IMG/VR virus record: IMGVR_UViG_3300035522_000061
Coordinates: 1-64,000 of that record
DNA: 64,000 nucleotides
DNA from: a virus
Lineage: Duplodnaviria; Heunggongvirae; Uroviricota; Caudoviricetes
Reading direction: 5' to 3' (one strand)
The notes beneath the pieces are model-generated. The model saw nothing but the letters and a program-made list of their open reading frames with translations, made no database searches and was not told the origin of the DNA. Each line of letters begins with the position of its first letter. The first letter of the stretch is position 1. Positions 3,429-64,000 of the stretch are shown here, one piece after another. The translations under genes and the position numbers were made by a program.

Positions 3429-3510
3429 GGGTTGAAATTCCCTGGGATCGTGCGCACAATATCCCTAAAATCCTTCTTATATGAGTACCTTGACGTGGTT
3501 AGAAGGCTTA
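3429..3510 (+). repeat. conserved ~80-nt intergenic element, copy 2
   Basis: Same flanks as copy 1. The central hairpin is replaced by GGGAT-CGTGCGCACAAT-ATCCC, which still pairs. Confidence 0.6.
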
Positions 3511-3560
3511 TTAACTAACACTCATAAAATAACAAGAATATCAACTTAAAAACAATAAAA

Positions 3561-4577: not shown

Positions 4578-4586
4578 ATCCTCAGA

Positions 4587-4660
4587 GGGTTGAAATTCCC
4601 GAGACTTAGGTCTCAAAATCCTTCATAATATACACTACCTTGACGAGGTATGAAGGCTTT
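4587..4660 (+). repeat. conserved ~80-nt intergenic element, copy 3
   Basis: Same flanks as copies 1 and 2. Central hairpin GAGAC-TTAG-GTCTC differs in sequence again but still pairs. Confidence 0.6.
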
Positions 4661-4801
4661 TAACAGAATGTGTATAATCCTTTTTGTAGGTTTGAGTAGA
4701 GTGAAGTATAGTAGCTCTCGGTTAAAAATCTACTATGGCAAGCAAGATCTTGAATATAATGTTGGCATTAAAATGAATCTCTAGCTAACGGAGTAAAATC
4801 T

Positions 4802-5724: not shown

Positions 5725-5797
5725 GCAGCATTCGTCTAGTTGGTTAGGACGTCAGATTTTCATTCTGGAAACTAGAGTTCAAATCTCTAACGCTGTA
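5725..5797 (+). tRNA. tRNA-Glu (anticodon TTC)
   Basis: Acceptor GCAGCAT/ACGCTGT. Anticodon stem TCAGA/TCTGG with loop TTTTCAT. T-arm TAGAG-TTCAAAT-CTCTA. Confidence 0.5.
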
Positions 5798-5800
5798 CAA

Positions 5801-5872
5801 AGGGGTTATCGGTATTATTAATTTCTTCGGTTCTACTACTAGTCGAGTTCGACTCTCGACAACCCCTCTAAT
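5801..5872 (+). tRNA. tRNA-like gene (anticodon arm not resolved)
   Basis: Acceptor AGGGGTT/AACCCCT and T-arm TCGAG-TTCGACT-CTCGA. No clean anticodon stem could be folded by eye. Confidence 0.3.
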
Positions 5873-6045
5873 TTGTTTGTTTTTTGTCAAAGATCCATTT
5901 TATATTACTCGGTATGTGATATATAGAGTAATAGGGAGAAAGGTTAAAGTGAGTTCGATTCTCACACTCTCCCCTAATTTTTTAAATTGGCGAAACATTG
6001 TTAACACTGTTCTAACTCTATGTGAATATCGTTAGAACTTTTATC

Positions 6046-6117
6046 GCGGAATGGAGAAGTGGTATCTCGCTTGGCTCATAACCAAGAGATCGCAGGTTCG
6101 AATCCTAGCTTCCGCTA
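6046..6117 (+). tRNA. tRNA-Met/fMet (anticodon CAT)
   Basis: Acceptor GCGGAA/TTCCGC. Anticodon stem CTTGG/CCAAG with loop CTCATAA. T-loop GGTTCGAATCC. Confidence 0.5.
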
Positions 6118-7372
6118 CTATGTTTTTGTTTATGATGTTATATTGAAGTCAGCCCTATGTGAATATCGCTGATTCTATTATTTCATTATTTGTGAATTAT
6201 TTAATTAAAAGTTCTTCACCCTATGTGAATATCGTGAAGTTTTAAGGAACTAAATGGTATATGAAGGTTCGATTCCTTCTAGTTCCACACTGTATTTTGA
6301 AGATAAGTTTTAGGTTCGTGAGAATATAGAATTAGGGAATAGATTATATTTTTAGTCTATTCCCGTATTTTTAAATAGGACTTATGATGGTTCTTCGAAT
6401 GAAGAAATCGTAACTACAAGAACATCTTTTAGATGTTAAAGTCTTGTTCTAAGACGTAACTGCTTAGAGGTGTTAGCCTACACGAGGGTATAAGGGCATC
6501 AAATAATTTTATATTTATGAAAAAGCAAGAAATTGTATTAAGTGCTTACATGTTAATTATGGCAATGTTAGCATTTGTGGTGGTATTTTAAAAGTAGGTT
6601 CGATTCCTACCTTGCTACAAAAAATCTTTGTCGCCGAGTAGCACCATACCAGCCTTGTAGGGAAGGTAAACTACGTAATAAGCTTTAAATCGTGGGGATT
6701 CCTTTACTAATACTAAAGGTGCATTGCGCAATATGATAGGTATTAGGATAGTACGAAGTACTAGACAGAAAGGCAGAGATTTAAGAGGAGAGTATTATTA
6801 CTTTCCTCTTTTAAAAGATTATACTTCAAGTGTTATATATACTTTTGTTATTTTCGTAGTTACAGGTTTGTGAAAATATGTAATTATGTTTGGGAAGATA
6901 TTGGTTATTTTGTAAGTTCGAATCTTACTCTTCCCACTCCTCATAGTTTCTCCAGCTATTAAAAATTGGAGGGATCGCCATCCGCCAGAGAGTATGGAAG
7001 TTAGGTCGCTTACTGTTAAAGGCGATGGGTTTGTTTGCTAATTTTGTTAACCCGATTAAAATTTCAAATTTAGCTATACAGTAAAAATACACTTAATGTT
7101 TGAAACAAACTTTAAATAGTTCCGAGGAAACTTGTATTTTACTGTTAAAGGTATTTAGGAGTAATTAGAAACTCGCATTAATTTGGAATATTACAATTAG
7201 TGAGTGTGGGGCAGTGCCACCTAAATATACTCTTCATGTGTTTAAGTTTTTTACTATTGCCTCTGTGAAGATCCAATAGTTTTAATTTTAAAAAGTATGG
7301 AATAGTTATTAAAATGGTGTTAGGAGATAGATTCAAAACCTAAAAATTCTCTTATTATAAAAATATTAAATT

Positions 7373-7445
7373 GGGATATGGTGTAACGATTAGCACTAGA
7401 CATTTTGGATGTTTCAGATTTGGTTTGAATCCAAATATCCCAACA
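7373..7445 (+). tRNA. tRNA-Gln (anticodon TTG), tentative
   Basis: Acceptor GGGATAT/ATATCCC. Anticodon stem AGACA/TGTTT with loop TTTTGGA. Non-canonical T-loop TTTGAAT. Confidence 0.4.
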
Positions 7446-9172: not shown

Positions 9173-10768
9173 ATGATTATGTTTGACAAAAAATTAACAA
9201 ATCTCTTTGATGAGTCTATTGATGTAAAAAATCAATATGAAACAGTTTCAGAAAACGGAGCTGTAAAATATTCAACTTCTGGAAATGCTTTTATAGATAA
9301 TTTTGCTAGTATTGGTTCTTTTAGAGATCCTAGAGCATATTCTGAAGTAGCTAATGACATGGAACTTTTATGGAATGTAGATCCTTTAAAGTGTCTTAAA
9401 TTAGCAGTTTATATCCGAATGATTACAAGAGCTACTAAAAATGATGATGAAATATTAGAAGTACAAAAAGGACAAGGATTGAAAAATGAGGGCATTCTAA
9501 GAATAATCTGGATTGCAATTAATCATCCTAATACTTTTAAATCTAATATTTCTATATTTATATTAGCGGGTTCTTGGAAAGATATTTTCACAATGCTAAA
9601 TTTAGATTTACAATATCATGGTTGGAATAATCGTGTTTTAGATTGGAATTTTATGCTAGGAGTTATTCAAGCTGGATTAAGTAATAAAAATTGTACTAAT
9701 CTTGTTAGAAAATATCTTCCTACTATAAAGACTAATTCTAAAGCAACTACAATAAAATCACAAGCAGATACTATAATAGGCAGATGGATAGCTAAAAGTT
9801 TATTTAATTCTAAAGAATCTTTTAAAGAATATAGAAAACTTAAAAGTAAAGGTTCTGCTCATAAATGGCAGCAATTAATATCTAAACGATTATTTGATAA
9901 AATAGATTTTAATTCCGTTTCTGGGCGTGCTTTATCCCTTTTAGTTAATTCTAAATTTTTAGAAAATCAAAATCTTTCTAACAAATACTTAGAATGGATT
10001 AAAAATCAACCTATAGCTAAATATACTGGATATGTATTTGAACTCTTTAAACCTTGTGAAAATGTTACCCAAGTTCCAGAATATGTAAAGTACACTATTA
10101 ATGCACAATTCAAGAATTTATTGCAAGAATCTCCTTCTAAATTATTAGTTGTTAGAGATACTTCAGGTTCTATGATGAGTATGGTTCCTGGTTGTAAAGT
10201 AACTGCATTTACCATTGCTAAAGCTCTTGCATTATATTTTTCAACTGCTTTAACAGGTAAATTTAAAGATACTTATGCCGAATTTAATGATACTTGTGTT
10301 TTACACAAATGGAAAGGTTTAACTCCCGTTGATAAATATTTAAATGACACGCACTATAGCATTGGAAATACTAATTTTCAAAGTGTTATTGATTTGTTTA
10401 TTAACATGAAAATGCTTGGTTGTACATCTTTTCCAGAAGGTATTCTTTGCATTTCAGACGGGCAATTTGATAGTTGTGGTACTGTTTCTAATTTTAATAA
10501 GGCAATTGATAGACTTAGAAGAGCTGGATTTGATAAAGAATATATAGATAATTTTAAAATTATACTATGGGATATTCCAACTTGGACATCTTCTAAACCT
10601 AAGTTTGAAGATTTTGCAGATGCTCCCAATTTTTATCATTTGTCTGGATATGATCCTTCTATTATATCATTTATATTAGGAACTAAGAAGAAAAGTACTC
10701 CTAAAAACGCATTAGAATTGTTTGAATCTGCTATGGATCAAGAACTTCTTAATAGGTTAACAATATAA
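9173..10768 (+). CDS. large protein with vWA-like domain (DxSxS MIDAS motif)
   Basis: 531 aa. VVRDTSGSMMS is a MIDAS-like motif followed by an alpha/beta region. No other domain recognised. Confidence 0.4.
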   Translation: MIMFDKKLTNLFDESIDVKNQYETVSENGAVKYSTSGNAFIDNFASIGSFRDPRAYSEVANDMELLWNVDPLKCLKLAVYIRMITRATKNDDEILEVQKGQGLKNEGILRIIWIAINHPNTFKSNISIFILAGSWKDIFTMLNLDLQYHGWNNRVLDWNFMLGVIQAGLSNKNCTNLVRKYLPTIKTNSKATTIKSQADTIIGRWIAKSLFNSKESFKEYRKLKSKGSAHKWQQLISKRLFDKIDFNSVSGRALSLLVNSKFLENQNLSNKYLEWIKNQPIAKYTGYVFELFKPCENVTQVPEYVKYTINAQFKNLLQESPSKLLVVRDTSGSMMSMVPGCKVTAFTIAKALALYFSTALTGKFKDTYAEFNDTCVLHKWKGLTPVDKYLNDTHYSIGNTNFQSVIDLFINMKMLGCTSFPEGILCISDGQFDSCGTVSNFNKAIDRLRRAGFDKEYIDNFKIILWDIPTWTSSKPKFEDFADAPNFYHLSGYDPSIISFILGTKKKSTPKNALELFESAMDQELLNRLTI

Positions 10769-11923: not shown

Positions 11924-13852
11924 ATGTTACAAACTAGTTTTATTGTTGCAGGAATTCTTGTAGTTCTTGTAGTGTTGACCGTAATTGGTCTAATGTCGCG
12001 TTATCGTAGATGCGCAAGTGATGAAATTCTTGTAGTATTTGGTAAAGCTGGAAAGAAAACCCAGATTAATCCAGAAACTGGCAAGAGCGAAACAGTTGTT
12101 TTGCCTTCTAAAATTATTCATGGCGGAGGTACATTTGTATTTCCGATTATTCAAGATTGGCAAAAAATGTCTTTAACTCCTATACAGATTCAAACTTCTG
12201 TAGTTGGAGTATCTAGCCAAATGATTAAAGTAACTATTCCTGTAACATTAACTACTGGTATTGGTACTACTCAGGAGCTTATGCAAAATGCTGCTAGTCG
12301 TTTCTTAAATGCTGAATTAGAAGAAATTGCTAATCAAATTAAGGATATTCTTATTGGTGAAATGCGTAGTCTTATGGCTACTATGACCATTGAAGAAATT
12401 AATGCTGATCGCGGTAAATTCTTAGGTAAAGCAAAAGAGAACATTGAAACTGAAATTAATAAAGTAGGTTTCACTATTATTAATATTAATAATGCAGATA
12501 TTTCTGATGATGCAAATTATATTAAGAATTTAGGTAAGAAAGCAGCCACTAAAGCTCAAGCTCAAGCAGAAGCAGATATTGCAGAAGAAGAAAAGAAGGG
12601 TCAAATTCAAATTGCCGAAACTAACAAGGAAAGGGAAATTGCTGTTGCTAGTGCTGAAAAAGAGCGTGCTACTCAAGTAGCTCAGACTCAGCAAGAGCAG
12701 GAAGTAAGAGTAGCTGAAATTAATCAGGATAAGCAAATTAAATTGGCAGAAGCTGAAAAGATTAAGACTACTGGAGTCGCAGAACAACAAGCTGAACAGG
12801 CTGCTAATGTAGCTAATGCTAAAACTAAAGCAATAACTGCACAAGCAGAAGCAGATGCGATTAAAGAAGCTAATGTTGCTAAAGCAGAATCTGAAGCTGA
12901 ATCAGCTAAAGCAGCTAGAAAAGCAGAAGCTATTGCGTCAGTAGCCAAGTCTAATTCAGAAGCAGAATCTGCAAAAGCAGAAGCAGAAGCTCAGAAACAA
13001 ATTAGAATTGCTAAAGCACAGCAAGAAAAAGAAGCTGAAACTCAAAAAGCAATTAATGACCAGCAAGCTAAAGTTGCAGAGTATGAATCTACTAAGAGAC
13101 AGAAAGCAGCAGAAGCTAATAAGAAAGCTGGAGTAGCAGAGCAACGCGCAACTATTGAAGTAGCACAAGCTAAAGGAGAAGCAGCCAAAGCAGAAGCAGA
13201 AGCAATAAAAGTTGCTGGTACTTCTAAAGTAGAGGCTCAAATGTCAATTGCTAAAATTGAACAAGAGAAACAAATAGAAGTAAACGAAGCTAAAGCTTTA
13301 GCAGAACAAGCTAAATTGAATGCTGAAGTTATTGTTCCAGCTGAAACTGAGAAGGAGAAAATTCGTATTGAAGCTGAAGCGATTAAACAAAAAGCTATTC
13401 TAGAAGCACAGGCAGAAGCAGAAGCTATTCGAACTAAAGCTTATGCTGAAGCAAATGCTACTCAAACTAAGTTAGAAGCAGAAGCAGAGGGTACTAAAAA
13501 GAAACTTTTAGCAGAAGCAGAGGGTAAAAGAGCTTCTTTAATGGCTGAGGCAGATAAGGTACAAGCTATTGAGATGGCTCCTGCGCTTGCTGTTAAGCAA
13601 ATGATTGAAGCTGGATTGACTCCTGAACTTGTTGTAAATTATAAAACAGTAGATCAATTAGCAGATATTGCTACAGCACAAGCTAAGATATATGAGCATA
13701 TTCAGCTTGGTCAAGTTACTGTTTATGGTGGTGAAAATACTGCTGGTAACTTTATGTCTAATATGGCTAAGAATCTCAGTCCTGCAATGGATATTCTTGG
13801 TAATTTGCCTATTGCAGATACTGTTAAGAAAGTGTTTGGAAGTACTAAATAA
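11924..13852 (+). CDS. flotillin-like SPFH/band-7 protein with long Ala/Glu/Lys-rich (EA-repeat) coiled coil
   Basis: N-terminal TM helix, SPFH domain (ILVVFGKAGKK...IPVTLTTGIG...MTIEEINADR), then ~350 aa of AEAEA/KAEAE repeats. The C-terminus resembles bacterial FloT/YqiK. Confidence 0.75.
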   Translation: MLQTSFIVAGILVVLVVLTVIGLMSRYRRCASDEILVVFGKAGKKTQINPETGKSETVVLPSKIIHGGGTFVFPIIQDWQKMSLTPIQIQTSVVGVSSQMIKVTIPVTLTTGIGTTQELMQNAASRFLNAELEEIANQIKDILIGEMRSLMATMTIEEINADRGKFLGKAKENIETEINKVGFTIININNADISDDANYIKNLGKKAATKAQAQAEADIAEEEKKGQIQIAETNKEREIAVASAEKERATQVAQTQQEQEVRVAEINQDKQIKLAEAEKIKTTGVAEQQAEQAANVANAKTKAITAQAEADAIKEANVAKAESEAESAKAARKAEAIASVAKSNSEAESAKAEAEAQKQIRIAKAQQEKEAETQKAINDQQAKVAEYESTKRQKAAEANKKAGVAEQRATIEVAQAKGEAAKAEAEAIKVAGTSKVEAQMSIAKIEQEKQIEVNEAKALAEQAKLNAEVIVPAETEKEKIRIEAEAIKQKAILEAQAEAEAIRTKAYAEANATQTKLEAEAEGTKKKLLAEAEGKRASLMAEADKVQAIEMAPALAVKQMIEAGLTPELVVNYKTVDQLADIATAQAKIYEHIQLGQVTVYGGENTAGNFMSNMAKNLSPAMDILGNLPIADTVKKVFGSTK

Positions 13853-21450: not shown

Positions 21451-22071
21451 TTGAAACATTTAACTCTAAGTTTAGAAGAGGAAATAAATCTCTTGGACAA
21501 ATATAATTTAACTCCTAATGAATTCCTAATAGTTAAAGTTCTTCTATTATTGCAAGATAATGAAGAAGAAGAATTGTTTTATAATTTAATAACAACTATA
21601 AAACATATTGGGCTTGCATTGCGAGATATTCTTATTAGTTTACAAGAGAAGGGTGTAATTTTAAAAACATATAAAGTACCATCTGAAGGAACTAAATTTG
21701 ATCCTTTTGCTATTCCTATTAATAAGAATTTTGTAAAGCATTTTTATAAATGTTCTTTTGAAATAGGTAAAGAATTATTTGATAATTATCCTCAGTTCGC
21801 TACTATTAACGGTTGTGTAGTACCCCTACGTACTGTTGCTAAGAAGTTTGATTCATTAGAACAAGCTTATCTTAAATATGGTAGAGCAATTGGATTTAAT
21901 CCAGAAAAGCATGAGAAAATTATAGAATTAGTTAAATGGGCAAAAGACAATAATATCTTAAATTGTTCTTTAGCTTCATTTATAGTTAATGAAGGGTGGC
22001 ACGATTTAGAGGCTCTCAGAAATGGTAAAGATGTGGCAAATATTAATTATGATGCAGTTAGAATTTTATGA
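21451..22071 (+). CDS. hypothetical protein (upstream partner of the helicase, possible loader)
   Basis: 206 aa. ATGA-coupled to the DnaB-like gene. Confidence 0.35.
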   Translation: MKHLTLSLEEEINLLDKYNLTPNEFLIVKVLLLLQDNEEEELFYNLITTIKHIGLALRDILISLQEKGVILKTYKVPSEGTKFDPFAIPINKNFVKHFYKCSFEIGKELFDNYPQFATINGCVVPLRTVAKKFDSLEQAYLKYGRAIGFNPEKHEKIIELVKWAKDNNILNCSLASFIVNEGWHDLEALRNGKDVANINYDAVRIL

Positions 22072-22847
22072 TTGCAGAATCATTACTTCATCAGATTGAA
22101 GTAGGTAGATTAGGTAAGCAGTGGGGATACTCAATGGGTCTCCCAAAATTAGAAGAGATAATAGATGGAGTATCTAGAGGAATTTATACTTTAGTATTTA
22201 GTCCTACTGGTAGTGGTAAGAGTTCACTTGCTTTATATTCTTATGTATATAGACCATTAATGGAACATCTTGATGATGGTAATTTTAAAGTTAGTTATTT
22301 TTCATTAGAGATGAGCGCCGAAATGATCTATGCTAAGATATTAAGTATGTATATCTTTGAAACTTATGGAATAGAGTTGTCTACTGGAGAACTTCTTTCT
22401 AGAAAACGTAATTATAAATTATCTGATGATTATTATAAAATAACTCAAGAATGTTTACCTTGGTTACAGAAGGTTGAAAAGATTTTAGTTATTTATGATA
22501 AAGCATTAAATGCTAGTAGTTTATATACAATCTTAATGGCTCAACTAGAAAAAGATGGCAAGTTTGAAGAAACAGATGGTAGAAAAATATATCATCCTAG
22601 TAATGAAGAACTTACTCATTTAGTAGTTATAGACCATTTAAGTTTAGTAAGAAGGTCTAATGGACGTACTCTAAAAGAAGAAATGGATTTAATATCCTCC
22701 TATTTGGTAACATTAAGAAATATATGTAAAATTAGTCCGCTTGTAATTATGCAAGCAAATCGAAATTCTACTTCTATGGATAGAAGAAAAGAAGGATTAA
22801 ATAACTTAAGAATTGATGATACCAAAGATACTGGTGCGCCAAATTAG
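22068..22847 (+). CDS. DnaB-like replicative helicase RecA-fold domain, exon 1 (gene interrupted)
   Basis: Walker A SPTGSGKSS, Walker B HLVVIDHLS and MQANR motif. The ORF stops just before the conserved arginine-finger region, which reappears ~250 nt downstream. Confidence 0.6.
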   Translation: MIAESLLHQIEVGRLGKQWGYSMGLPKLEEIIDGVSRGIYTLVFSPTGSGKSSLALYSYVYRPLMEHLDDGNFKVSYFSLEMSAEMIYAKILSMYIFETYGIELSTGELLSRKRNYKLSDDYYKITQECLPWLQKVEKILVIYDKALNASSLYTILMAQLEKDGKFEETDGRKIYHPSNEELTHLVVIDHLSLVRRSNGRTLKEEMDLISSYLVTLRNICKISPLVIMQANRNSTSMDRRKEGLNNLRIDDTKDTGAPN

Positions 22848-23091
22848 GGCTAGACGCACCTAAAACTCCGTTAAACGGGGAAACTCCTAAATAGGACAAT
22901 CCCGTGCTAAATCCTTTAGAAATAAAGGAAAACGCCTAACGACTAGAAGTGATGCTAAACAGGTAGAGCTGTAGCTATAAAATCTTCCACGAAAGCGGGG
23001 CACTGCTTACATTTGTAAGTTAAAGAGATAGTCTGAACTATATAGTAATATATAGAAGTATAAGATAAAGAACTTATACGATAACATTATG
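22837..23091 (+). mobile_element. putative group I intron in the DnaB-like helicase gene (no homing endonuclease; boundaries +/-10 nt)
   Basis: ~255-nt GC-richer non-coding gap between two halves of one helicase. The downstream half has no ATG. Confidence 0.4.
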
Positions 23092-23671: not shown

Positions 23672-23944
23672 AAATTGTCGACTTTAAATCCCGTTAATTG
23701 CTGGGACATCCTTAGAGCTTTATAAACTACAACGATGATTAGTAATAATGAACGTGAATGTTTAAAAATTATAAAGATTGGACAATCAGCAGCCAAGATT
23801 CTATATGGCGAAATAGAATAAGGTTCACAGACTATCCTTTATGGAGTAAAAATTGAAAAACAAATATTTGCTTTTTAATTTTGAAAAGCGGGAAATTTAG
23901 AGTATATTTGAAGTAAATTATTAATAATAAATTTATTTCAAAAT

Positions 23945-24871
23945 ATGCAACAAAATAATTATTCATTTTATGTTCTTAAATCGGACATATCGCCAGACGA
24001 AATTCGTTATGTAGGAGTAACTACTCAAAAATTAGATAGAAGATTTTCTCAACATAAATACTGTGCTAACCATCCAGAAAAAAGAGGATTACCTGTTCAT
24101 AAATGGATATACTCTGTATATAAAAATGGGGGCTCAGTTATTATAGAGAAAATAGACGAATGCTCAGAAGAAGCTTGGGAAGCTAGAGAGCAATACTGGA
24201 TTAGTTATTATAAAAACCTTGGACATAAATTAATGAATATTGACAAAGGAGGAAAAGGTGTAATAACTAAAGAAAAAAGAAGTATTGATTCTCTTACAAG
24301 AGCAGGAAATGCCCATAAAAAACCGATAACAGCATTTAATTTAGATGGCACTAAATATAAAGATTTTGATTCTATTACTGAAGCAGCAGCTGAATTAAAC
24401 GGATCAATAACTAATATAGATAGTGTATTAAATGGTAATTCTAAATCAGCTTGTGGTTTTATATGGAAATATAAAACAGAAGAAGAAAAAATAGATTCTT
24501 ATAAAAAAGAATCTATTGGAATTAAAATATATCAGTTTGATTTATATGGAAATTTATTAAGAGAATTTGAAAGTAAAAAGTGTGTAATTCAATTCCTTAA
24601 TAAAAATAGCCACCACGCGTTGGATAAAGCCATAAAAAATAAAACTGAATATAAAAGGTTCTTTTGGGCATTAACTGATAAAATAAATATTTCCGAGTAT
24701 GTATCTCCATTTAAATATAAGATTACTAAAAATGGAGAGGAAGTAATTCAATTAATAGAACAAAAAGAAGTTGCTGAGTATTTATGTATATCTAAATCTG
24801 CTGTTAATCAGTGGTTAAAGAAATATAACGGATCGTTTTCATGTAATAATTATATTGTTGATACAATCTAA
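23945..24871 (+). CDS. GIY-YIG homing endonuclease
   Basis: N-terminal YSFYVL...IRYVGVTTQ...R, then FSQHK and N motifs. C-terminal repeated DNA-binding modules (NUMOD/IENR-like GFIWKYK, HTH). Confidence 0.65.
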   Translation: MQQNNYSFYVLKSDISPDEIRYVGVTTQKLDRRFSQHKYCANHPEKRGLPVHKWIYSVYKNGGSVIIEKIDECSEEAWEAREQYWISYYKNLGHKLMNIDKGGKGVITKEKRSIDSLTRAGNAHKKPITAFNLDGTKYKDFDSITEAAAELNGSITNIDSVLNGNSKSACGFIWKYKTEEEKIDSYKKESIGIKIYQFDLYGNLLREFESKKCVIQFLNKNSHHALDKAIKNKTEYKRFFWALTDKINISEYVSPFKYKITKNGEEVIQLIEQKEVAEYLCISKSAVNQWLKKYNGSFSCNNYIVDTI

Positions 24872-26612: not shown

Positions 26613-26686
26613 TGATTAGTTGAATTTTGGAAACTTTGGTTTTTGCTAGAAATTATATAAATTTGCATTAAAATATAATATAGTTT

Positions 26687-30311: not shown

Positions 30312-30580
30312 AGTCTATGTTACATAGGCTTTACAGTTCGTATAGATACAATCTATTAACACCTTTTAACAATTAAAATATTGATTTTATTTTTGAGTAT
30401 TTGATAATAATATTATATTTGCAAGTACTCCGATTGCTTAGAGGGGTAGAGATAAAAATGAGAAATTTTAGATTATTTTACAATTTATTCTTTTGATAAT
30501 TCGATAAAAAGTAGTAAATTTGTATATAGTTAGAATGGAGATGATAATACGAACTAATGTTTAAAAATATTTATTGAATT

Positions 30581-42287: not shown

Positions 42288-43499
42288 ATGAAAGTAACAA
42301 AAAGAAACGGTGAGCCCGCTGAGTTTAATAGAAGTAAAATTGTAAATGCAGTTTCAGCAGCATTTAAAGAATGTGGGTACGAAAGTATCCCTAAAACTAT
42401 TGAGGAAATTGTAGATGAAGTCCAGATTTGGGATAATATCAGTATTGAAGATATACAAGATCAAGTTGAAGAACTTTTAATGGATTATGGATATTCAGAT
42501 GTAGCTAAAGCTTATATTCTTTATAGAGAAGAACGTAAGATGATCCGTGCTGAAAAAGATAAACTCATTAAAGGTATTAAATCTAAACTTGAAGCTTCTA
42601 ATGTAAAAAATCAAAATGCTAATATTGATGAGCATTCATTTGGTGGACGTATTGGCGAAGCAGGTAGAGTTGTAACTAAAGATTATGCTCTTAATTATTG
42701 TATGTCTGAAATGGCTAAGCATAATCATGAAAATAATGAAATATACATTCATGATTTGGATTCTTACGCTGTAGGGATGCACAACTGTTTGAGCATACCA
42801 GTAGATGACTTACTTGCTAACGGGTTTAAGCTAAAGCAAACTGATGTTAGACCTGCTAAGAGTATTAATACAGCATTTCAATTATTAGCTGTAATATTCC
42901 AAGTACAAAGTTTACAACAATTTGGTGGTGTATCTGCAACTCATTTAGATTGGACTATGGTTCCCTATGTAAGACTATCTTTTAATAAGCATTATAGAAC
43001 TGGATTGAAGTATATTGATCACATTCGTAATGAAAAATACGATCAAACAGATTTGTCTATAGAAGATAGTTTGTATAAAGAACATCCTAATTCTTATGAA
43101 TATGCTTTGGATATGACTAAACGAGAAATTCATCAAGCTGTTGAAGGTATGTATCATAATTTAAATACTCTACAAAGTAGAAGTGGTAATCAATTACCTT
43201 TTACTTCTATTAATTATGGTACTTGTACACAACCTGAAGGACGTCTTATTAGTCTAGCTTTACTTGAAGTAAGTAAGAATGGTATTGGTAGCCATCATAG
43301 CACTCCGATTTTTCCGTGCTGTATCGTTCAATTAATGAAAGGTGTTAATCGAAAACCTGGAGATCCGAATTATGATATATTCCAAGAAGCTACTAAGGTT
43401 ACGAGTCTTAGGTTATACCCTAATTATGCCAATGTAGATTGGTCTGGTAATGAAGGGTATGATATAAACGATCCTCGCACTTATTTCAGTACAATGGGT
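42288..43499 (+). CDS. nrdD: anaerobic ribonucleoside-triphosphate reductase NrdD, exon 1 (ATP cone plus N-terminal catalytic region)
   Basis: ATP-cone start MKVTKRNGEPAEFNRSKI. The ORF-track ORF runs to 43505 (...YFSTMGK*). The proposed exon ends after STMG at 43499. Confidence 0.7.
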
Positions 43500-43792
43500 A
43501 AGTGAAAACTGCAGCCCATTTAAAATCTCTTTAACCCTGCTTAAGGGGTGTTTCTATTTAAGCGTAGAAGCTAACGGTTAGGTCTTATTATATAATTGCA
43601 GTGTAAATAATAAGATGAGACCGTGCTAATGTACTTATAGTTATATTAGTACAGAATGTGTATCGACTAAGGGTGATGAGTGTAGCCCTGTAGGATCGGA
43701 GATAAGCACCGATTCCAAACAAGAGACAACTCTTTGTTGTGAAACAAGGAATGAACATATAGTCAGTTCCGATGGTGACATTGGGTAAAATG
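43500..43792 (+). mobile_element. putative group I intron in nrdD (no ORF)
   Basis: 293-nt GC-richer insert. Splicing after ...ATGGGT (U at -1) to TGTAGA... (intron ends in G) gives STMG|CRTANGW. T4 nrdD/sunY is a known intron-containing precedent. Confidence 0.5.
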
Positions 43793-44785
43793 TGTAGAAC
43801 TGCGAATGGCTGGGATATTAATGGTTTTGGTCAACTTAAAGATGGTAGAGGTAATATCTGTCCTGTTACAATCATACTTCCTACACTTGCAATGAATTCT
43901 AAACTGCAAGCTATATCTAATATGGATAATGCAGATGTAAATATCAAGGATTTAGTATGGAATAAATTTATTGAATTGTTGGATACTAAGATTCATGAAG
44001 CAAAAGATATGCTAATTGAACGATTTGATTGGATATGTAGTCAAGATGCTGCATCCGCTAAGTTTATGTATCAAAATAATGTAATGTATGGATATAAACC
44101 TGAAGAAGGTATCCGTTCAGCATTAAAACATGGTACTTTAGCTATTGGTCAATTAGGATTATCAGAAGCTTTGAGAATTATTTTCGGTAAAGACCACACT
44201 GATTCAGAAATTATGGATAAAGCTAAAGAATTAGAAGCTCTCTTTAAGAAGAGATGTAGTGAATTCAAAGAAGCTTATAAACTTAATTTTGGTGTTTACT
44301 ATACTCCTGCTGAAAATCTGTGTTATACAGCAATGCAGAAATTTAAGAAGCAATTTGGCGAAGTTCCAGGAATTACAGAACGTGAGTTCTTTACTAATAG
44401 TATGCACGTACCTGTATGGCATGAATGCACTCCATTTGAGAAAATTGAAATTGAATCACAGCTTACTGGTTTCAGTAGTGCAGGTTGTATAACTTATGTT
44501 GAATTACCTGCTTCTACTAAGCATAATCCAGAAGCTATTGAAGAGATTGTTAATTATGCAATGGATCATGATATTCCATACTTTGCCATTAATGTACCAA
44601 ATGATTCTTGTCAAGACTGTGGTTATATTGATGAATTGAATGATACTTGTCCTATGTGCGGTAGTAAAAATATCAAACGATTACGTCGTGTAACAGGCTA
44701 CCTTACCGGAGACTACAAGACGTCATTTAACGTTGGTAAGCAACAGGAGGTCGAACAACGAGTTAAACATATAAAAGAATTATAA
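43793..44785 (+). CDS. nrdD: NrdD exon 2 (glycyl-radical C-terminal half)
   Basis: Glycyl radical motif RRVTGYLTG near the C-terminus and Zn-ribbon CQDCGY...CPMCGS. The track ORF begins at 43772 inside the putative intron. Confidence 0.7.
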   Translation, partial: CRTANGWDINGFGQLKDGRGNICPVTIILPTLAMNSKLQAISNMDNADVNIKDLVWNKFIELLDTKIHEAKDMLIERFDWICSQDAASAKFMYQNNVMYGYKPEEGIRSALKHGTLAIGQLGLSEALRIIFGKDHTDSEIMDKAKELEALFKKRCSEFKEAYKLNFGVYYTPAENLCYTAMQKFKKQFGEVPGITEREFFTNSMHVPVWHECTPFEKIEIESQLTGFSSAGCITYVELPASTKHNPEAIEEIVNYAMDHDIPYFAINVPNDSCQDCGYIDELNDTCPMCGSKNIKRLRRVTGYLTGDYKTSFNVGKQQEVEQRVKHIKEL

Positions 44786-51226: not shown

Positions 51227-51525
51227 TAATTCCTAGTAAATTTATTATACATGGGCACACTGTTACTGTAAATATAGTAGAGTTTTGTGATGACCCAGGT
51301 GAATTTGGGTGCTATAATTCAGTTCTAGAGGAAATTACAATTGCTACTAAAGTACTTGAAGGTACTAAGGCGATAGAACTTAAACAATATCAAATAGAGC
51401 ATACATTCGTTCACGAACTTCTGCATTGCTTTCAATTTCATATAAGAGGTTCCTACGATGAAAGCGAAGCTCAATCTTATGCTGGATTATTTTTAGAATT
51501 TTTAAATACCAAAGAAAATGTTTGA
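51223..51525 (+). CDS. hypothetical protein with HExxH motif (possible small zinc metallopeptidase fold)
   Basis: FVHELLHCFQFH motif. Confidence 0.3.
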   Translation: MIIPSKFIIHGHTVTVNIVEFCDDPGEFGCYNSVLEEITIATKVLEGTKAIELKQYQIEHTFVHELLHCFQFHIRGSYDESEAQSYAGLFLEFLNTKENV

Positions 51526-52036
51526 TTTTGCACAAGCTTATACCCATCTTTTATGGGGTCATAGAGTATCTCTGACTTTAAATAATATTAAAAGAATATA
51601 TTATCGTACAGCAGATGGAGATATTATGTGTATTCCTAATAATAAAAAACATTTAGAATATAAAGTAAAATCTTTTAAAATTGATGCCATATCTTCTTAT
51701 GAATGGGATCTGGAGAAAGATAATAAATTTCTTATTACTACTAAATTGAATGGAGATGATCGATTTAGTCTGCATTATGCCGGATTTTCGGATTCGGAAA
51801 TGACCGAAGAAGAACTTACTGATAAATTAAATCTTTACCCAGACGAATTTTTAGAAGACTCTCATGAAGAATATGAAATGTATGAAGATTTAGAAGATGA
51901 CGATTACGGAGTTGATATTATTGTTACCAAATTAACTCCTCAAGAATTAGAGGATTGCGATTATATGACTTGGTTTGATCATTTAAGTGCTTACGATCTG
52001 GATAACTTAACTTTTATAAGAGTTAATATTGGATAA
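51518..52036 (+). CDS. hypothetical acidic protein
   Basis: 172 aa with a Glu/Asp-rich middle region. Confidence 0.4.
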   Translation: MFDFAQAYTHLLWGHRVSLTLNNIKRIYYRTADGDIMCIPNNKKHLEYKVKSFKIDAISSYEWDLEKDNKFLITTKLNGDDRFSLHYAGFSDSEMTEEELTDKLNLYPDEFLEDSHEEYEMYEDLEDDDYGVDIIVTKLTPQELEDCDYMTWFDHLSAYDLDNLTFIRVNIG

Positions 52037-52220
52037 ACATGAAGAAAAAGAATTTTGTAACATTACAAAAGCATCGACAAGTTAAGAAACATTTAAAAAG
52101 AAAACAAGTAAATTCGATAAAATCAATAATGAATAATTTAGATTTTATTATGGCACAATATTCATTGAAAAATGTTCTTTCGTATTAAACCCAGACTCAC
52201 TTATTTAAATTTCTGGTAAA

Positions 52221-53078
52221 ATGAAGAGCTTTAAAATTTCACAATTAATAACTGATAGACAAGATGCATCCTTGGGATTATATTTCAAGGATGTATCTAA
52301 GCAGTCTATGATAAATGCAGATAAAGAAGTAAGTCTTGCCAAACGTATAAAGCAAGGAGATAAGGAGGCTTTACAGGAATTAGTAAATGCCAATTTAAGA
52401 TTTGCAATTTCAGTTGCCAAACAATATCAAAATAAAGGACTACCTTTAGTAGATTTAATACAAGAGGCTAATATTGGTTTAATAAAAGCAGCCCAAAGTT
52501 ATGATGAAACTAGAGGATTTAGATTTATTTCTTATGCGGTTTGGTGGATAAGACAATCTATTATGCACGCTATATCGGATCAATGTAGAACAATACGTGT
52601 TCCGATGAATCAAATTGCTAATGTTAATAAAATAAATAAAGTAACTGCTAAATTTGAACAAGAGCATATTAGAAAACCCTCTCCAGAAGAATTAGAGGAC
52701 TTGCTAGATATTCCTGTTTATGATATTAATTTGGCAACAGCATCTTTTAATAGGTCTGTATCATTAGATACTCCTTTTAGTATGGATGAAGACGCAGGAA
52801 GTCTAGTAGATATTATTCCTAATGAAAATGCAGAATCTACAGATTCCTCTTTAATAAAAGACGGAATATCTAAAGAATTGGAAGTAGTTTTATCTAAATT
52901 ATCTTATAGAGAGCGAGATGTTCTTAGAATGTCTTATGGTTTAGGTATGCAAGCTATGCAACATGAAGAAATAGCTAGTAGATTTGGTATAGGATGTGAA
53001 AGAGTTCGTCAAATTCAACATGAAGCTATTAAAAAAATTAGAGATAGATATAGTGATTTATTAAAAGAATTATTATGA
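52221..53078 (+). CDS. sigma-70 family RNA polymerase sigma factor (regions 1.2, 2, 3 and 4)
   Basis: DLIQEANIGLIKA...FISYAVWWIRQSI (regions 2.2-2.4). Region 4 RMSYGL...EEIASRFGIGCERVRQIQHEAIKKIR. Confidence 0.8.
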   Translation: MKSFKISQLITDRQDASLGLYFKDVSKQSMINADKEVSLAKRIKQGDKEALQELVNANLRFAISVAKQYQNKGLPLVDLIQEANIGLIKAAQSYDETRGFRFISYAVWWIRQSIMHAISDQCRTIRVPMNQIANVNKINKVTAKFEQEHIRKPSPEELEDLLDIPVYDINLATASFNRSVSLDTPFSMDEDAGSLVDIIPNENAESTDSSLIKDGISKELEVVLSKLSYRERDVLRMSYGLGMQAMQHEEIASRFGIGCERVRQIQHEAIKKIRDRYSDLLKELL

Positions 53079-53154
53079 TTAAAACTATATTAGCATTCCG
53101 AGAATCCCGAGGAAGAGAAATCGAAACTGCACCTTTAGAAGTATTTCAATTAAA

Positions 53155-54444
53155 ATGATTTATTTAGTAAGTAAAGATAAAAAACTATATTCTCCAGAAA
53201 GATATAGAGAAGTAGACTTTAAGGAGGCTATGGATATTTTATATCCTTTAAAAGAGGTACAATTAGATACAGAAACTAAAGGATTAGATTGTTTTACGAA
53301 GGAATTACTTACTTTGCAATTAGGGTGTACTGAAAATCAAGTTGTATTTGATTGGAGAACTATAAGTCCTTCTGAAAAGTCTATTTTAAAAGAATATCTA
53401 GAGTCTGATAGAGTGTTCTTGGGGCATAATATAATGTTTGATTTAACCTTTTTATATAAACAAAATATTTGGCCCAATCATGTTTATGATACTATGGTAG
53501 TAGAACAATTAATATATTTAGGGTATCCTAGAGTATTAGCTACCGAAATAGTACAGACATATGGAATTAAACCTTCTTGTTATGAATATATTGCTCCCGA
53601 CGAAAAAACTAAAGAACATTGGGAATTATCTTATTCTTTACGAGCTACTGCAAAAAGAAGACTTGGAGTAGATATTGACAAAACTGTTCGAGGAAAAATT
53701 ATAAATGAAGGTTTAACAGAAGATGTTGTAGTATATGCTGCTGGGGATGTAATGTGGCTAGAGCCTATAAAAGAAAAGCAACTAGAAGAATTATCTACTC
53801 AAGATCTTTTAAAGGCTGCAGAATTTGAATGTGAATTTATTAAATTTTTAGCATATGTAAAATTCTGTGGAGTTCATTTGGATATTTCTAAATGGAAAGA
53901 AAAAATGAAAAATGATCAAGCTTCTTTAAGAGAAGCTGAGTCACAATTAAATAAATTTGTTATAGATTTAGATGCTAAAGAATATTTATATAGATATGCT
54001 AAAAATAAAAAAGAAAAAGAAAAATTAGTAGCATTAGGATTTATTCGATTTCCCGAAAAAGATGATTCTATGGAGTGTTACAGATATAAAATAAAAGGAA
54101 AATTTGTATCTATAAATTTACAATTATCCTTATTTGAAGAATGTAATGACATAGGGCCACAATGCACTATAAATTGGAGTAGTTCTACTCAAGTTATAAA
54201 ATTATTTGAACTTCTTGGGATACAAGTTACAACTTTTGATAAAAAGACTAAAAAAGAAAAGAAGTCCATTAATGCTACGTTAATTAGTTCTCAAGTTGAT
54301 AAATTTCCTATTCTTGCTATATTTTTAAAGTATCAAGCCGCCTCAAAAGTTGTATCTACTTATGGTCAAAACTGGTTAGACGCTATTAATCCAGTAACTG
54401 GAAGAATTCATGTTGATCTACATTCTATTGGAACAGATACAGGT
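53155..54444 (+). CDS. family A DNA polymerase, exon 1 (3'-5' exonuclease plus N-terminal polymerase part)
   Basis: Exo I QLDTETKGLD, Exo II HNIMFDL and Exo III YAAGDV. Ends ...VTGRIHVDLHSIGTDTG. The track ORF stops at 54459. Confidence 0.7.
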
Positions 54445-55515
54445 GAAAAATTTCCATAAATTACAATTTTTCTATTAATTTTATTTCTAAGGTATTAACT
54501 ATTTTAATCTGTCCTAAATAATTATTATATTTGCATATAATAAATTTAAATTAAATATATGTATTATGATTAAAAAATGGACTGAGTAGGAAATAGAAAA
54601 TTTAGTATCTGAGTATAACTCAGGTAAAGATACTGGAGAATTAGCAGTTATGTTTAATTGTTCTAAGTATCAAATTAGAAATAAATTAAAAGATAAGGGG
54701 ATTGTTTTAAGAAAAACTGCCCTTAATCGAACTTATAAATCGAAAGCTATTGTTCCGTTACAAGCATGGACAGATAAAATAGGCAGTCCAGAATTTGACT
54801 ATTTTATTGGAATACTAGCCTCGGATGGTTGTATTGTTGATACTTGTACAGCTTTAGAAGTTAAAGATTTAGAATTAATAGAAAATTATAATAAATTTTT
54901 AGGTTTTCGATGTAATATTAATTCAAGAAAATCTAAAGTTAATGGCAATGTCTATTATAATATTAAGTATAAAAATAAAGAAATAGTTAACTTTTTATCT
55001 GAATATGGTATAGTGCCAAGAAAATCTAACATACTAATGCTTCCATATATAAATTGGAATATATTATTAGGAATTTTTGATGGAGATGGTAGTATTACTA
55101 AAGATAAAAGATATGAGTGCTGTTTTAAATTTACTATTACTTCTGGAAGTATTAATTTTATTAATCAAGTTAAGAAGTTTTTAGAAAAAGAGAATATCTC
55201 TCCAAATATACAAGAATATAATACAGATAGTGGACATTGGTATAATATATATGTAACTAAAGGTGAACATATATATAAAATATATTGTAATTTATATAAA
55301 GACTCCTCTTTCTTTCTGTCTAGAAAGAAAGAAAAATTCGGCCCCTTAGTAGAGAAATTTGCTAAGTGTAACTCCGTAAATTCAGTTAATGGGAGGGAAA
55401 ACCAGAAGACTGAGCCAAGCCTTAATATTGAGGAAGGTGCAGAGACTAGAAACGGAGAACCTAAGTAATAAGTAATTGTTATAAGGTTGAGGTATAGTCC
55501 GGCATGGAAATGTTG
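54445..55515 (+). mobile_element. putative group I intron with LAGLIDADG homing endonuclease splitting the DNA polymerase gene
   Basis: Splicing after ...GATACAGGT (U at -1) to CGAGTATCTAGT... (intron ends in G) yields GTDTG|RVSSGGG..NLP, restoring the Pol I TGR(L)SS...QNIP motif. Confidence 0.5.
54650..55468 (+). CDS. LAGLIDADG homing endonuclease
   Basis: IGILASDGCI and LGIFDGDGSI motifs. Confidence 0.7.
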   Translation: MFNCSKYQIRNKLKDKGIVLRKTALNRTYKSKAIVPLQAWTDKIGSPEFDYFIGILASDGCIVDTCTALEVKDLELIENYNKFLGFRCNINSRKSKVNGNVYYNIKYKNKEIVNFLSEYGIVPRKSNILMLPYINWNILLGIFDGDGSITKDKRYECCFKFTITSGSINFINQVKKFLEKENISPNIQEYNTDSGHWYNIYVTKGEHIYKIYCNLYKDSSFFLSRKKEKFGPLVEKFAKCNSVNSVNGRENQKTEPSLNIEEGAETRNGEPK

Positions 55516-56448
55516 CGAGTATCTAGTGGTGGTGGTCAGTATAAATTAAACCAACAGAATTTACCACATGATAAAATAACTAGAGCATGTTTTACTTCAG
55601 AAAAAGGTAATAAATGGATTTCTTGTGATTACCAAAGTCAAGAAAGTAGAATTATTGCATCTGTTTCTAAAGATAAAGCTATGGTAGAATTATTTGAATC
55701 TGGATGTGGAGATGTTCATAGTTTGGTTGCCTATATGTCTTATCCTAATATAATTCCCAGAGACACTAAAATAGAAGATATAAATGAACTATATCACGAT
55801 CAAAGACAGGATGCAAAAGGAATTGAGTTTTCAGTTAATTATGGCGGGGATGCTAAAACTATAGCTAATAATAAAGGTATTCCGTTGCGAGCTGCAGAAA
55901 AGATATATTCTGATTTTATGAGGGGTTTTCCAGGAGTAGCTCAATATCAAGAGTATTGTAGGCAAAATGTAATGGAAAAAGGATATATCTTAATGAACTC
56001 TATACTAAAGCATAGAGCCCATATTTATGATGCAGATTGGATTATACAAATGCATGAGAAATGTAAAGATCCTGAATATTGGCAATATTATCAAGAAATG
56101 AAAATAGAATCTCCACATTGTGACACTGTTAGAAATGTTAGTCATTATCTTAGTCGGAAATCAGACTGTGAAAAGCAATCCATAAACTACAGAATACAAA
56201 ATCGTGGGGCCTGCGCTTTCAAATTATCTGCAATTAAACTATTTAATTGGATAAAAGATAATAATTTACTTAATGTAGTCAAAATATGTGTAGTAGCACA
56301 TGATGAATTTAATCTAGAGTGCCCAGAAGATATGGCAGAATATATTGGAGATATATTAGTCAAATGTATGATTGCAGGAGGAAAACCTTTTTGTCCGAAT
56401 GTATTTTTAGGAGCTGATAAAACTATAAGTGATCACTGGATTCATTAA
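55516..56448 (+). CDS. family A DNA polymerase, exon 2 (palm and fingers: motifs A, B and C)
   Basis: Motif A DYQSQESRI, motif B RQDAKGIEFSVNYGG and motif C VVAHDEF. The track ORF starts at 55504. Confidence 0.7.
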   Translation, partial: RVSSGGGQYKLNQQNLPHDKITRACFTSEKGNKWISCDYQSQESRIIASVSKDKAMVELFESGCGDVHSLVAYMSYPNIIPRDTKIEDINELYHDQRQDAKGIEFSVNYGGDAKTIANNKGIPLRAAEKIYSDFMRGFPGVAQYQEYCRQNVMEKGYILMNSILKHRAHIYDADWIIQMHEKCKDPEYWQYYQEMKIESPHCDTVRNVSHYLSRKSDCEKQSINYRIQNRGACAFKLSAIKLFNWIKDNNLLNVVKICVVAHDEFNLECPEDMAEYIGDILVKCMIAGGKPFCPNVFLGADKTISDHWIH

Positions 56449-63944: not shown

Positions 63945-64000
63945 CTAAACCGCCATATCGGTCGCAGCTTTTTCACCTAACGAAACTTTCAATAAATCAG
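63945..64000 (-). CDS. 3' end of a minus-strand gene continuing beyond the window (GC-richer)
   Basis: Open frame on the reverse strand (...GEKAATDMAV*) with a stop at 63945-63947. GC content rises sharply here. Confidence 0.3.
   Translation of the reverse strand, partial: DLLKVSLGEKAATDMAV

Follow-up and report, generated by a model that had tools for sequence, protein, structure and literature searches.

Phage-encoded sigma factors, such as SPO1 gp28 and T4 gp55, generally reprogram the RNA polymerase (RNAP) of the host. Phage members of the sigma-70 family are well known in general, with a protein family of their own (PHROG 351) and sigma-like genes found by tblastn in 300 deposited phage records. 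ECF (Group 4) sigmas are minimal, with neither region 3 nor the first helix of region 1.2 (PMC4598750). Region 1.2 makes contact with the discriminator, which follows directly on the -10 element (PMC4598750). In E. coli sigma-70, R584 contacts base -31 and E585 contacts base -33, and the R584C substitution makes recognition of -31 less specific, in vivo as well as in vitro (PMC2613000). The primary sigma of Bacteroides lacks region 1.1 and reads a -33 site together with a -7 site of consensus TANNTTTGY; Bacteroidota-type sigmas recognize -33 and -7 (TAnnTTTG) elements rather than TTGACA and TATAAT (PMC12632263).

How crAss-like phages are transcribed has been described for phi14:2. A virion RNAP transcribes the early genes, rifampicin blocks middle and late transcription, and the middle and late promoters resemble primary-sigma -35/-10 promoters and are read by host RNAP (bioRxiv 10.1101/2020.03.07.982082). 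Zeta crAss-like genomes are 155-189 kb long with 28-38% GC, mostly encode PolA, carry many tRNAs and homing endonucleases, have a forward nucleic-acid block and a reverse structural block, and use amber or opal recoding (PMC12386605; PMC7886860). The word "sigma" is absent from the 2025 Zeta paper and its phage Lera annotation table, and likewise from the main text and supplements of Yutin et al. 2021 in the form available. A 2026 mouse virome survey names "an RNAP sigma factor" among the functions enriched in the Zeta subtype, without analysis. Here, a sigma factor gene was analyzed in a 64,000-nucleotide stretch of viral DNA (IMG/VR record IMGVR_UViG_3300035522_000061, positions 1 to 64,000), the whole of which is called the window.

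The sigma factor gene and its neighborhood

A preliminary description had placed a phage sigma factor with regions 1.2 through 4 at 52221-53078, quoting two of its peptides. The open reading frame lies at that position, both peptides (ISYAVWWIRQSI and RVRQIQHEAIKKIR) are in its translation, and all four Pfam domains clear their gathering cut-offs:

52221-53078, plus strand: sigma factor gene, 285 aa, ATG start, TGA stop, zero in-frame TAG
52269-52367, plus strand: region 1.2 (Sigma70_r1_2), aa 17-49, 34.0 bits against a cut-off of 22
52380-52586, plus strand: region 2 (Sigma70_r2), aa 54-122, 64.2 bits against 24
52623-52841, plus strand: region 3 (Sigma70_r3), aa 135-207, 50.1 bits against 25.3
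52887-53042, plus strand: region 4 (Sigma70_r4), the upstream-element-reading helix-turn-helix, aa 223-274, 50.7 bits against 24.1

The product is a sigma-70-family factor with four regions, the Group 1/2 architecture, and the profiles matched are those of a sigma factor rather than a partial domain, an anti-sigma factor or an unrelated helix-turn-helix protein. A minimal sigma of the ECF (Group 4) or T4 gp55 type, which the preliminary description had also discounted, is ruled out by the scores of regions 1.2 and 3. Its wording "complete primary-sigma-like" needs to be narrowed. While the architecture is that of a Bacteroidota primary sigma, alignment to E. coli K-12 RpoD showed that region 1.1 and the non-conserved insert are absent: sigma-70 residues 1-99 have no counterpart, region 2 aligns from RpoD residue 373 onward, and only 16 residues precede the Pfam match to region 1.2. 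The top NCBIfam models were RpoD and RpoS (E 1e-70 to 1e-72), yet every RpoD/RpoS equivalog cut-off was missed (243 bits against 555 for RpoD PRK05658; 238 bits against 379 for RpoS TIGR02394), and the only NCBIfam cut-off cleared was that of the superfamily model TIGR02937. The top PHROG was phrog_351, "RNA polymerase sigma factor" (E 3.3e-67, 228.8 bits, aa 27-279). The best solved structures were SigA/RpoD chains (E 2e-60, aligned over aa 18-275); the structure search returned no solved Bacteroidota sigma-A for checking contacts.

The gene sits in the replication module between an acidic protein and the DNA polymerase, as had been proposed:

51518-52036, plus strand: 172-aa protein with an acidic C-terminus, no family match
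within 51518-52188, plus strand: 49-aa basic open reading frame upstream of the sigma gene, no family match
53155-54459 and 55504-56448, plus strand: family A DNA polymerase (PolA), a split gene in two pieces
54650-55468, plus strand: LAGLIDADG endonuclease gene between the PolA pieces

The neighborhood upstream of the sigma gene is not conserved in relatives. PolA lies just downstream of it in every relative examined, with an AAA gene intervening in some and two more small open reading frames in one, and the sigma gene is immediately upstream of PolA even in the distant scaffold MT835492.1, whose sigma is 39% identical. Rfam (E <= 0.1) found no intron in the PolA or NrdD gaps, and these are therefore reported as split genes.

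The window is a one-strand (plus) replication and nucleotide-metabolism block of about 29% GC that encodes SNF2-like and Dda-like helicases, a primase, exonucleases, NrdD, dUTPase, ligase, PolA and ThyX, together with four tRNAs and at least six homing-endonuclease genes. Just beyond its 3' end the strand flips, and three giant genes follow (1536, 788 and more than 980 aa) with 32, 14 and 18 in-frame TAG codons (64 in total) and no other internal stops; the two complete ones end in TAA. PHROG scans of these giant recoded proteins gave no match. Among 50,697 deposited phage records, their relatives were found only in the unverified human-faecal scaffolds MT835492.1, MT835470.1 and MT837483.1, the last a 6.8-kb fragment matching part of the largest protein. 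MT835492.1 and MT835470.1 also carry the sigma (38-39% identical) and the Dda-like helicase (40-41%), in the window's order in MT835492.1, where the forward block is standard-code and the minus-strand block opens only under TAG recoding. The 474-aa capsid protein of MT835492.1 matches crAss-like "major head protein" genes at 24-26% identity, and its only matches in the phage collection outside that group are itself, MT835470.1 and one more unannotated scaffold. A 3401-aa protein of MT835492.1 contains GADYDIDKA, a DxDxD-type motif like that reported in crAss-like RNAPs. An IMG/VR capsid scan found no sigma-clade contig among the best 80 of 355 relatives, and pattern-based IMG/VR retrieval with two window-edge proteins gave no match. 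The features shared with Zeta-type phages are the size of the relatives (155-175 kb), the GC content of about 29%, the forward block with tRNAs and endonucleases, and the recoded opposite block. By these features, the source of the window looks like a Zeta-type crAss-like phage, linked to that group in two steps through MT835492.1.

Origin and conservation of the phage clade

A search covering 5.8 billion proteins was performed, and the best 120 matches were considered. All are 284 aa long and 66-74% identical to the phage sigma, and one is named RpoD/SigA of Bacteroides intestinalis (WP_303661372.1). That these are host sigma-A proteins was ruled out, as every context examined was phage and labelled bacterial genomes reached only 46-52%. 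The contigs carrying WP_303661372.1 encode ribonucleotide reductase, dUTPase, DNA ligase, sigma, an AAA protein, PolA and ThyX, in the gene order of the window, and a relative at 74% identity has a window-like gene order too. The name is thus an annotation trap, as at least this one phage protein is entered in NCBI as a Bacteroides intestinalis RpoD/SigA. When one genome per species was scanned, Bacteroidota sigma-A topped out at 46-52% identity. The same species-level scan gave a lone 64% match, on a 2-kb contig binned into a Firmicutes MAG. Relatives in IMG/VR are 57-68% identical and lie on contigs of 155-175 kb, an identical sigma protein is encoded by 13 metagenome contigs, which come from several samples, and a single clade member accounts for 226 indexed blocks of the sequence collection. 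Contigs of the clade include IMGVR_UViG_3300035498_000621 (161 kb) and JGI Ga0376456_0000039 (88.6 kb), the latter continuing past the 3' end of the window. Since hosts reach only 46-52% identity while the relatives at 57-74% lie on phage contigs with ligase-sigma-PolA-ThyX synteny, the sequence comparisons identify the gene as a phage gene and not a host gene.

Several features trace the phage sigma to Bacteroidota. Its N-terminal 17 residues are homologous to those of the host protein (phage MKSFKISQLITDRQDASL, host MRQLKItksITNREsaSL), and the helix FISYAVWWIRQSIM in regions 2.3-2.4 is common to the phage sigma and all sampled hosts, while the Bacillus/E. coli type is FSTYATWWIRQAIT. Because this N-terminus, this helix, the length of 285 aa and the absence of both region 1.1 and the insert are held in common, the phage sigma is, on the evidence of its sequence, derived from the short primary sigma (sigma-A) of Bacteroidota that lacks region 1.1. 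Identity between 18 clade members and 62 Bacteroidota sigma-A proteins ranges from 37 to 54%, with a mean of 46.5%, as compared to means of 67% within the phage clade and 66% within the sampled Bacteroidota sigma-A. As the diversity of the clade equals that of the sampled phylum, the capture is old and the gene has persisted through a large radiation. In a neighbor-joining tree, the 18 clade members formed one group with a long stem, joined among Bacteroidales. Its placement beside Prevotellaceae is distrusted, since all long viral branches gather there, suggesting long-branch attraction.

All 13 clade copies extracted were intact, at 282-285 aa. Nei-Gojobori dN/dS was 0.03-0.11 in five close pairs and 0.17-0.39 in pairs nearing saturation, and the values between close pairs indicate that the gene is functional and under purifying selection. 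The same values make it hardly credible that the gene is a passenger, either a host sigma-A gene captured without a role for the phage or a mis-binned bacterial fragment. The nearest cellular relatives are indeed Bacteroidota sigma-A proteins and NCBI lists one clade member as a Bacteroides protein, but that protein is located on phage-type contigs, the gene stays near PolA across phylum-wide diversity and even in the 39%-identical distant relative, identical copies recur on the 13 contigs of several samples, and the window is phage-like throughout.

DNA-reading residues and candidate promoters

Residues were compared between the 18 clade members and the 62 Bacteroidota sigma-A proteins, using the numbering of E. 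coli sigma-70. The core-binding segment in region 2 of the phage sigma (DLIQEANIGLIKAA) is conserved, the clade having DLIQEGNIGLI.AA and hosts having DLINEGNLGLIKAA. The helix for melting and -12 recognition (FISYAVWWIRQSIMH) is of the Bacteroidota type, as compared to FSTYATWWIRQAITR in Bacillus and E. coli. The near-identity to hosts of a segment that, by homology to sigma-70, docks on cellular core RNAP argues against the phage sigma being the specificity subunit of the phage's own RNA polymerase rather than a partner of the host enzyme. Such an arrangement might be proposed because the giant recoded genes beside the window are homologous to the MT835492.1 block that contains the 3401-aa GADYDIDKA protein. 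We consider it very improbable, as no phage beta or beta' core subunits were seen in the window and as the virion RNAP of crAss-like phages is a single polypeptide, with no common upstream motif found for its early transcripts.

Changes are found in region 4.2, where hosts and Bacillus have (L/V)-T-R-E-R-(V/I)-R-Q-I and the clade has I-G-x-E-R-V-R-Q-I-Q-H. In the window the helix reads I-G-C-E-R-V-R-Q-I-Q-H-E, versus L-T-R-E-R-V-R-Q-I-K-E-K in Bacteroidota, and the two codons concerned are as follows:

52992-52997, plus strand: codons G258-C259, equivalent to sigma-70 T583-R584 (T-R in hosts, G-x in the clade)

The T583 position is Gly in 119/120 database representatives, and Arg has been lost from the R584 position in 116/120 (Cys 106, Ser 8, Ala 1, Tyr 1) and is present in 4; among the 18 clade members this position is C, S, I, G, A, T, E or Y. 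The equivalents of E585, R588 and Q589 are kept. In region 1.2, host Y-L-Q-E-I-G-K is replaced by Y-F-K-D-V-S-K in the clade, and F22 falls opposite sigma-70 M102 in a weak local BLASTP segment. The R441 position in region 2.4 is Gln in hosts and His, Arg or Lys in the clade. The extended -10 readers H455 and E458 are not kept, their positions being N130 and A133 in the window, just N-terminal of region 3, and Asn/Ser and Ala/Val in the clade; hosts lack these readers as well. Thus, the phage sigma keeps a host-type -7/-10 reader while naturally carrying the classical relaxed-specificity substitution in its upstream-element reader, and its discriminator-facing surface differs from that of host sigma-A. 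The functional effects expected of R584C and of the region 1.2 changes are extrapolated from E. coli sigma-70 to a sigma of the Bacteroidota type.

The preliminary description had named TTGACG boxes in repeated elements as candidate -35 targets. This hexamer has 16 plus-strand sites in the window. Three of them are part of a genuine repeat, CCTTGACGNGGT (3 copies as compared to 0.13 expected), and the remaining 13, most of which fall in coding sequence, are not. The repeat consists of a conserved GGGTTGAAATTCC box, a first hairpin whose sequence varies between copies while its pairing is kept, and then a conserved hairpin with TTGACG as its loop; no -10-like element lies at promoter spacing from these three copies. 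With its sites in coding sequence and hairpin loops, TTGACG was rejected as a -35 box. It would also be an unlikely target because Bacteroidota-type sigmas read -33 and -7 elements instead of TTGACA and TATAAT, and because the phage sigma no longer has the Arg (sigma-70 R584) with which the C of TTGACA is read.

The -7 box of Bacteroidota, TAnnTTTG, occurs in the intergenic DNA of the window 14 times on the plus strand versus 3 times on the minus strand. Across the window and 11 clade loci, 29 boxes were observed as compared to 21 +/- 4.3 in dinucleotide shuffles, a modest excess. Boxes within 150 nt of a start follow the canonical geometry, with T-T-T-G 19-20 nt upstream, and four boxes in the window show it:

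23903-23910, plus strand: candidate -7 box TATATTTG, TTTG 19 nt upstream, 34 nt before a GIY-YIG endonuclease gene
26658-26665, plus strand: candidate -7 box TAAATTTG, TTTG 19 nt upstream, 21 nt before the primase gene
30414-30522, plus strand: two candidate -7 boxes, TATATTTG at 30414 and TAAATTTG at 30515, TTTG 18-19 nt upstream, before the gene at 30581

The strand bias and canonical geometry of these boxes point to host-type promoters in the replication block, and the candidate -7 boxes with a canonical -33 TTTG could be read by either host sigma-A or the phage sigma. An unbiased count of strand-specific intergenic k-mers over the window and the 11 clade loci returned the -7 core ATTTGTA, A-rich words close to gene starts and nothing else, and no promoter motif specific to the phage sigma was found in this set. 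The search for a late-gene promoter motif, which the preliminary description had put forward as a check, was made on the late block of MT835492.1 and came out negative, with no enrichment of TAnnTTTG and no clear shared motif in 13 gaps; the sigma of this distant relative (WHISE in region 2.4) is too diverged to represent that of the window.

The canonical TTTG-N18-19-TAnnTTTG boxes before replication-block genes are what would be expected if the phage sigma were a spare housekeeping factor with the specificity of host sigma-A, keeping canonical -33/-7 phage promoters in use during infection should host sigma-A run short, be degraded or be inhibited. The host-like -10/-7 recognition helix and core-binding segment, and the retained E585, R588 and Q589 equivalents, are in line with this explanation. 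A simple extra copy, however, should keep its DNA-reading residues, as all sampled hosts do, whereas those of the phage sigma have changed across the clade (T583G in 119/120, R584 lost, region 1.2 and the R441 position switched), and a mean phage-host identity of 46.5% is well under the 66% seen within the phylum. A spare sigma-A is therefore unlikely.

Proposed role and comparison with known systems

The phage sigma is probably an alternative sigma factor that was captured long ago from Bacteroidota sigma-A and then specialized, and that redirects host RNAP to phage promoters. Redirection had been suggested in the preliminary description, and it is still the most plausible role, although the promoter searches did not find the target promoters. 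The sigma would be produced from replication-module genes under the standard genetic code, would bind host core RNAP through its host-like region 2.2 and region 4 surfaces, and would open promoters via its host-like -10/-7 recognition helix. It would read the upstream (-33/-35) element and the discriminator otherwise than host sigma-A does, since region 4.2 has Cys in place of its base-reading Arg and region 1.2 carries substitutions. In this way host polymerase would likely leave host promoters for those of the phage whose upstream element is weak or different, and the likeliest targets would be middle or late genes, the TAG-recoded block included. The sequence data show the identity and origin of the sigma, its conservation in the phage clade, the purifying selection on it and its residue changes; core binding, altered specificity and timing are what we infer.

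A different use of the same features would be as a competitor or decoy, with the phage sigma occupying host core RNAP, displacing sigma-A and shutting off the host, and with promoter activation secondary or absent. This is improbable. Purifying selection acts across the whole protein, regions 2.4, 3 and 4 included, and the melting residues and most DNA-contact residues are retained. Blanket sequestration would also be self-defeating in a phage like phi14:2, which needs host RNAP for its middle and late genes. The decoy explanation would account for core-binding determinants that are kept while the key base-specific contact is lost, and relatives of the phage do appear to encode a giant RNAP-like protein of their own.

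Redirection of host RNAP would also suit the genetic code of the locus. No in-frame TAG occurs in the sigma gene and the genes around it use the standard code, while the adjoining minus-strand block has 64 TAG in three genes, so that the sigma could be made before or without recoding. Circumstantially, a TAG-free sigma gene fits a regulator of the recoded block. A bolder and doubtful extension is that Zeta-type phages themselves control the sigma step of middle and late transcription, in which a derivative of sigma-A with a naturally relaxed, R584C-type upstream-element reader puts host core RNAP on the TAG-recoded late block, whereas phi14:2 appears to rely on host sigma-A. If so, late expression would be under two phage-controlled switches, sigma replacement and stop-codon recoding, and this might explain genome expression in lineages with badly disrupted virion-RNAP genes. 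By analogy, the phage sigma would act at the step corresponding to middle and late transcription in phi14:2. The available text on phi14:2 mentions host RNAP and E. coli sigma-70 and no phage sigma, while the window phage encodes one.

Among the closest known systems is the sigma-A of Bacteroides fragilis and its relatives. Like the phage sigma, it has about 285 aa and regions 1.2-4 only, with no region 1.1 or insert, and the two have in common the core-binding segment DLI(N/Q)EGN.GLIKAA. Unlike it, the phage sigma is phage-borne, is 46-52% identical to host proteins as against a within-phylum mean of 66%, has IG(C)ERVRQIQH rather than LTRERVRQIKEK in region 4.2 and YFKDVSK rather than YLQEIGK in region 1.2, and has a basic residue for Gln at the R441 position. 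The sigmas of PHROG 351, such as rpoD in Microcystis phage MaAM05 and Acinetobacter phage MD-2021a, also have four regions. The window sigma is at most 40% identical to deposited phage sigmas, and differs from them in its origin from another host phylum and in its Bacteroidota promoter-reading signature. What is worth pursuing is the origin from Bacteroidota sigma-A in a crAss-like lineage together with a natural R584C-type recognition helix. The finding adds a conserved, selected, host-derived regulator to a widespread lineage of about 170 kb, one that goes unmentioned in the Zeta-defining papers. C259 of the window sigma aligns with R584, at which E. coli sigma-70 mutants R584C and R584A are known, and is Cys as in R584C. 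In contrast to the E. coli mutant, the phage state is natural and lineage-wide, is combined with T583G and other helix changes, and stands in a background whose cognate upstream element is the -33 site rather than the TTGACA of E. coli sigma-70. The clade thus offers a natural experiment on Bacteroidota promoter recognition, in which the -7 reader has been kept and the conserved upstream-element Arg is gone.

A TAG-recoded block beyond the window and the region before it

Directly past window position 64000, on the loci that run on beyond the 3' end (L161 10520-20312, L162, and L163 3394-13316), the coding strand switches and genes lie on the minus strand. Three of these are giant genes of 1536, 788 and >980 aa, containing 32, 14 and 18 in-frame TAG codons, respectively. 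Because these in-frame TAG codons are numerous, TAG is the only type of internal stop present, and both complete genes end in TAA, TAG is a sense codon in the giant minus-strand genes. Of the 101 genes in the forward block of the window, just 6 terminate in TAG. The stretch preceding window position 1 (L158, 1-8300) has only short, broken-up ORFs with matches to LysM and Peptidase_M15, together with a series of small minus-strand ORFs; it probably combines lysis genes that are recoded with a control region of divergent type.

Introns, split genes and homing endonucleases

Three features interrupt or overlap genes in the window:

22798-23055, +, group I intron, matching Rfam RF00028 at 70.3 bits (gathering score 50)
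53155-56448, split PolA, interrupted by a LAGLIDADG endonuclease gene at ...TDTG / RVSS...
42288-44785, split NrdD, with a 266-nt gap between the pieces

The group I intron overlaps the 3' end of an ORF at 22068-22847, and a GIY-YIG/NUMOD endonuclease gene (23945-24871) lies downstream of it. PolA of relatives is a single piece of 742-744 aa. An Rfam search of both the PolA and NrdD gaps (E ≤ 0.1) found no intron in either. Plus-strand copies of TAnnTTTG, the Bacteroidota-type -7 box read by host sigma-A, lie at 23903, 32497, 45982 and 54526, directly 5' of homing-endonuclease genes starting at 23945, 32561, 46012 and 54650, respectively. These four are among the eight best-placed TAnnTTTG boxes. 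The mobile genes seem to carry in their own host-type promoters.

Structured repeats and repeat-rich cargo

Further features of the window are as follows:

1240-1315, 3434-3515 and 4584-4665, +, three copies of a structured repeat, all within the early part of the window that is rich in tRNA genes
9173-10768, +, protein of 531 aa that carries DUF2828 and DUF7788 domains and matches phrog_850 ('RNA-binding protein')
11924-13852, +, protein of 642 aa carrying an SPFH/Band-7 domain in its N-terminal part

Each repeat consists of a GGGTTGAAATTCC box, a first hairpin whose pairing is preserved between copies despite differing sequence, AAAATCC, and a second hairpin whose loop contains TTGACG. TATAAT or TAAAAT follows 27-33 nt downstream, and in at least two copies an ORF start comes next. 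The repeat matched no Rfam family; its candidate roles are regulatory RNA, terminator and promoter-associated element. The phrog_850 protein is encoded just 3' of the region (5725-7444) holding three of the four tRNA genes. In the 642-aa protein, long imperfect repeats rich in Ala, Glu and Lys follow the SPFH/Band-7 domain and give rise to most direct-repeat families of the window. Such a protein is out of the ordinary as replication-block cargo.

Mislabelled and distant relatives of the sigma factor

One sigma relative, WP_303661372.1 (P0048; loci L154-L157 and L010), is named 'RpoD/SigA [Bacteroides intestinalis]' at NCBI, yet the contigs that carry its gene are of phage type. The index of the sequence collection lists it in 226 blocks. 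An 'Intestinibacter sp.' MAG bin includes a 2-kb phage fragment with this sigma. Both cases are traps of annotation or binning, and the Bacteroides intestinalis label is a weak hint of a Bacteroides host.

On the distantly related, syntenic faecal scaffold MT835492.1, the following gene was located:

52341-53111 (locus L168), sigma gene directly upstream of PolA

The sigma gene lies immediately 5' of PolA, as in the window. Its region 2.4 reads WHISEAIRR rather than WWIRQSIMH, so in the MT835492.1 lineage even the residues that read the -12 position are altered.
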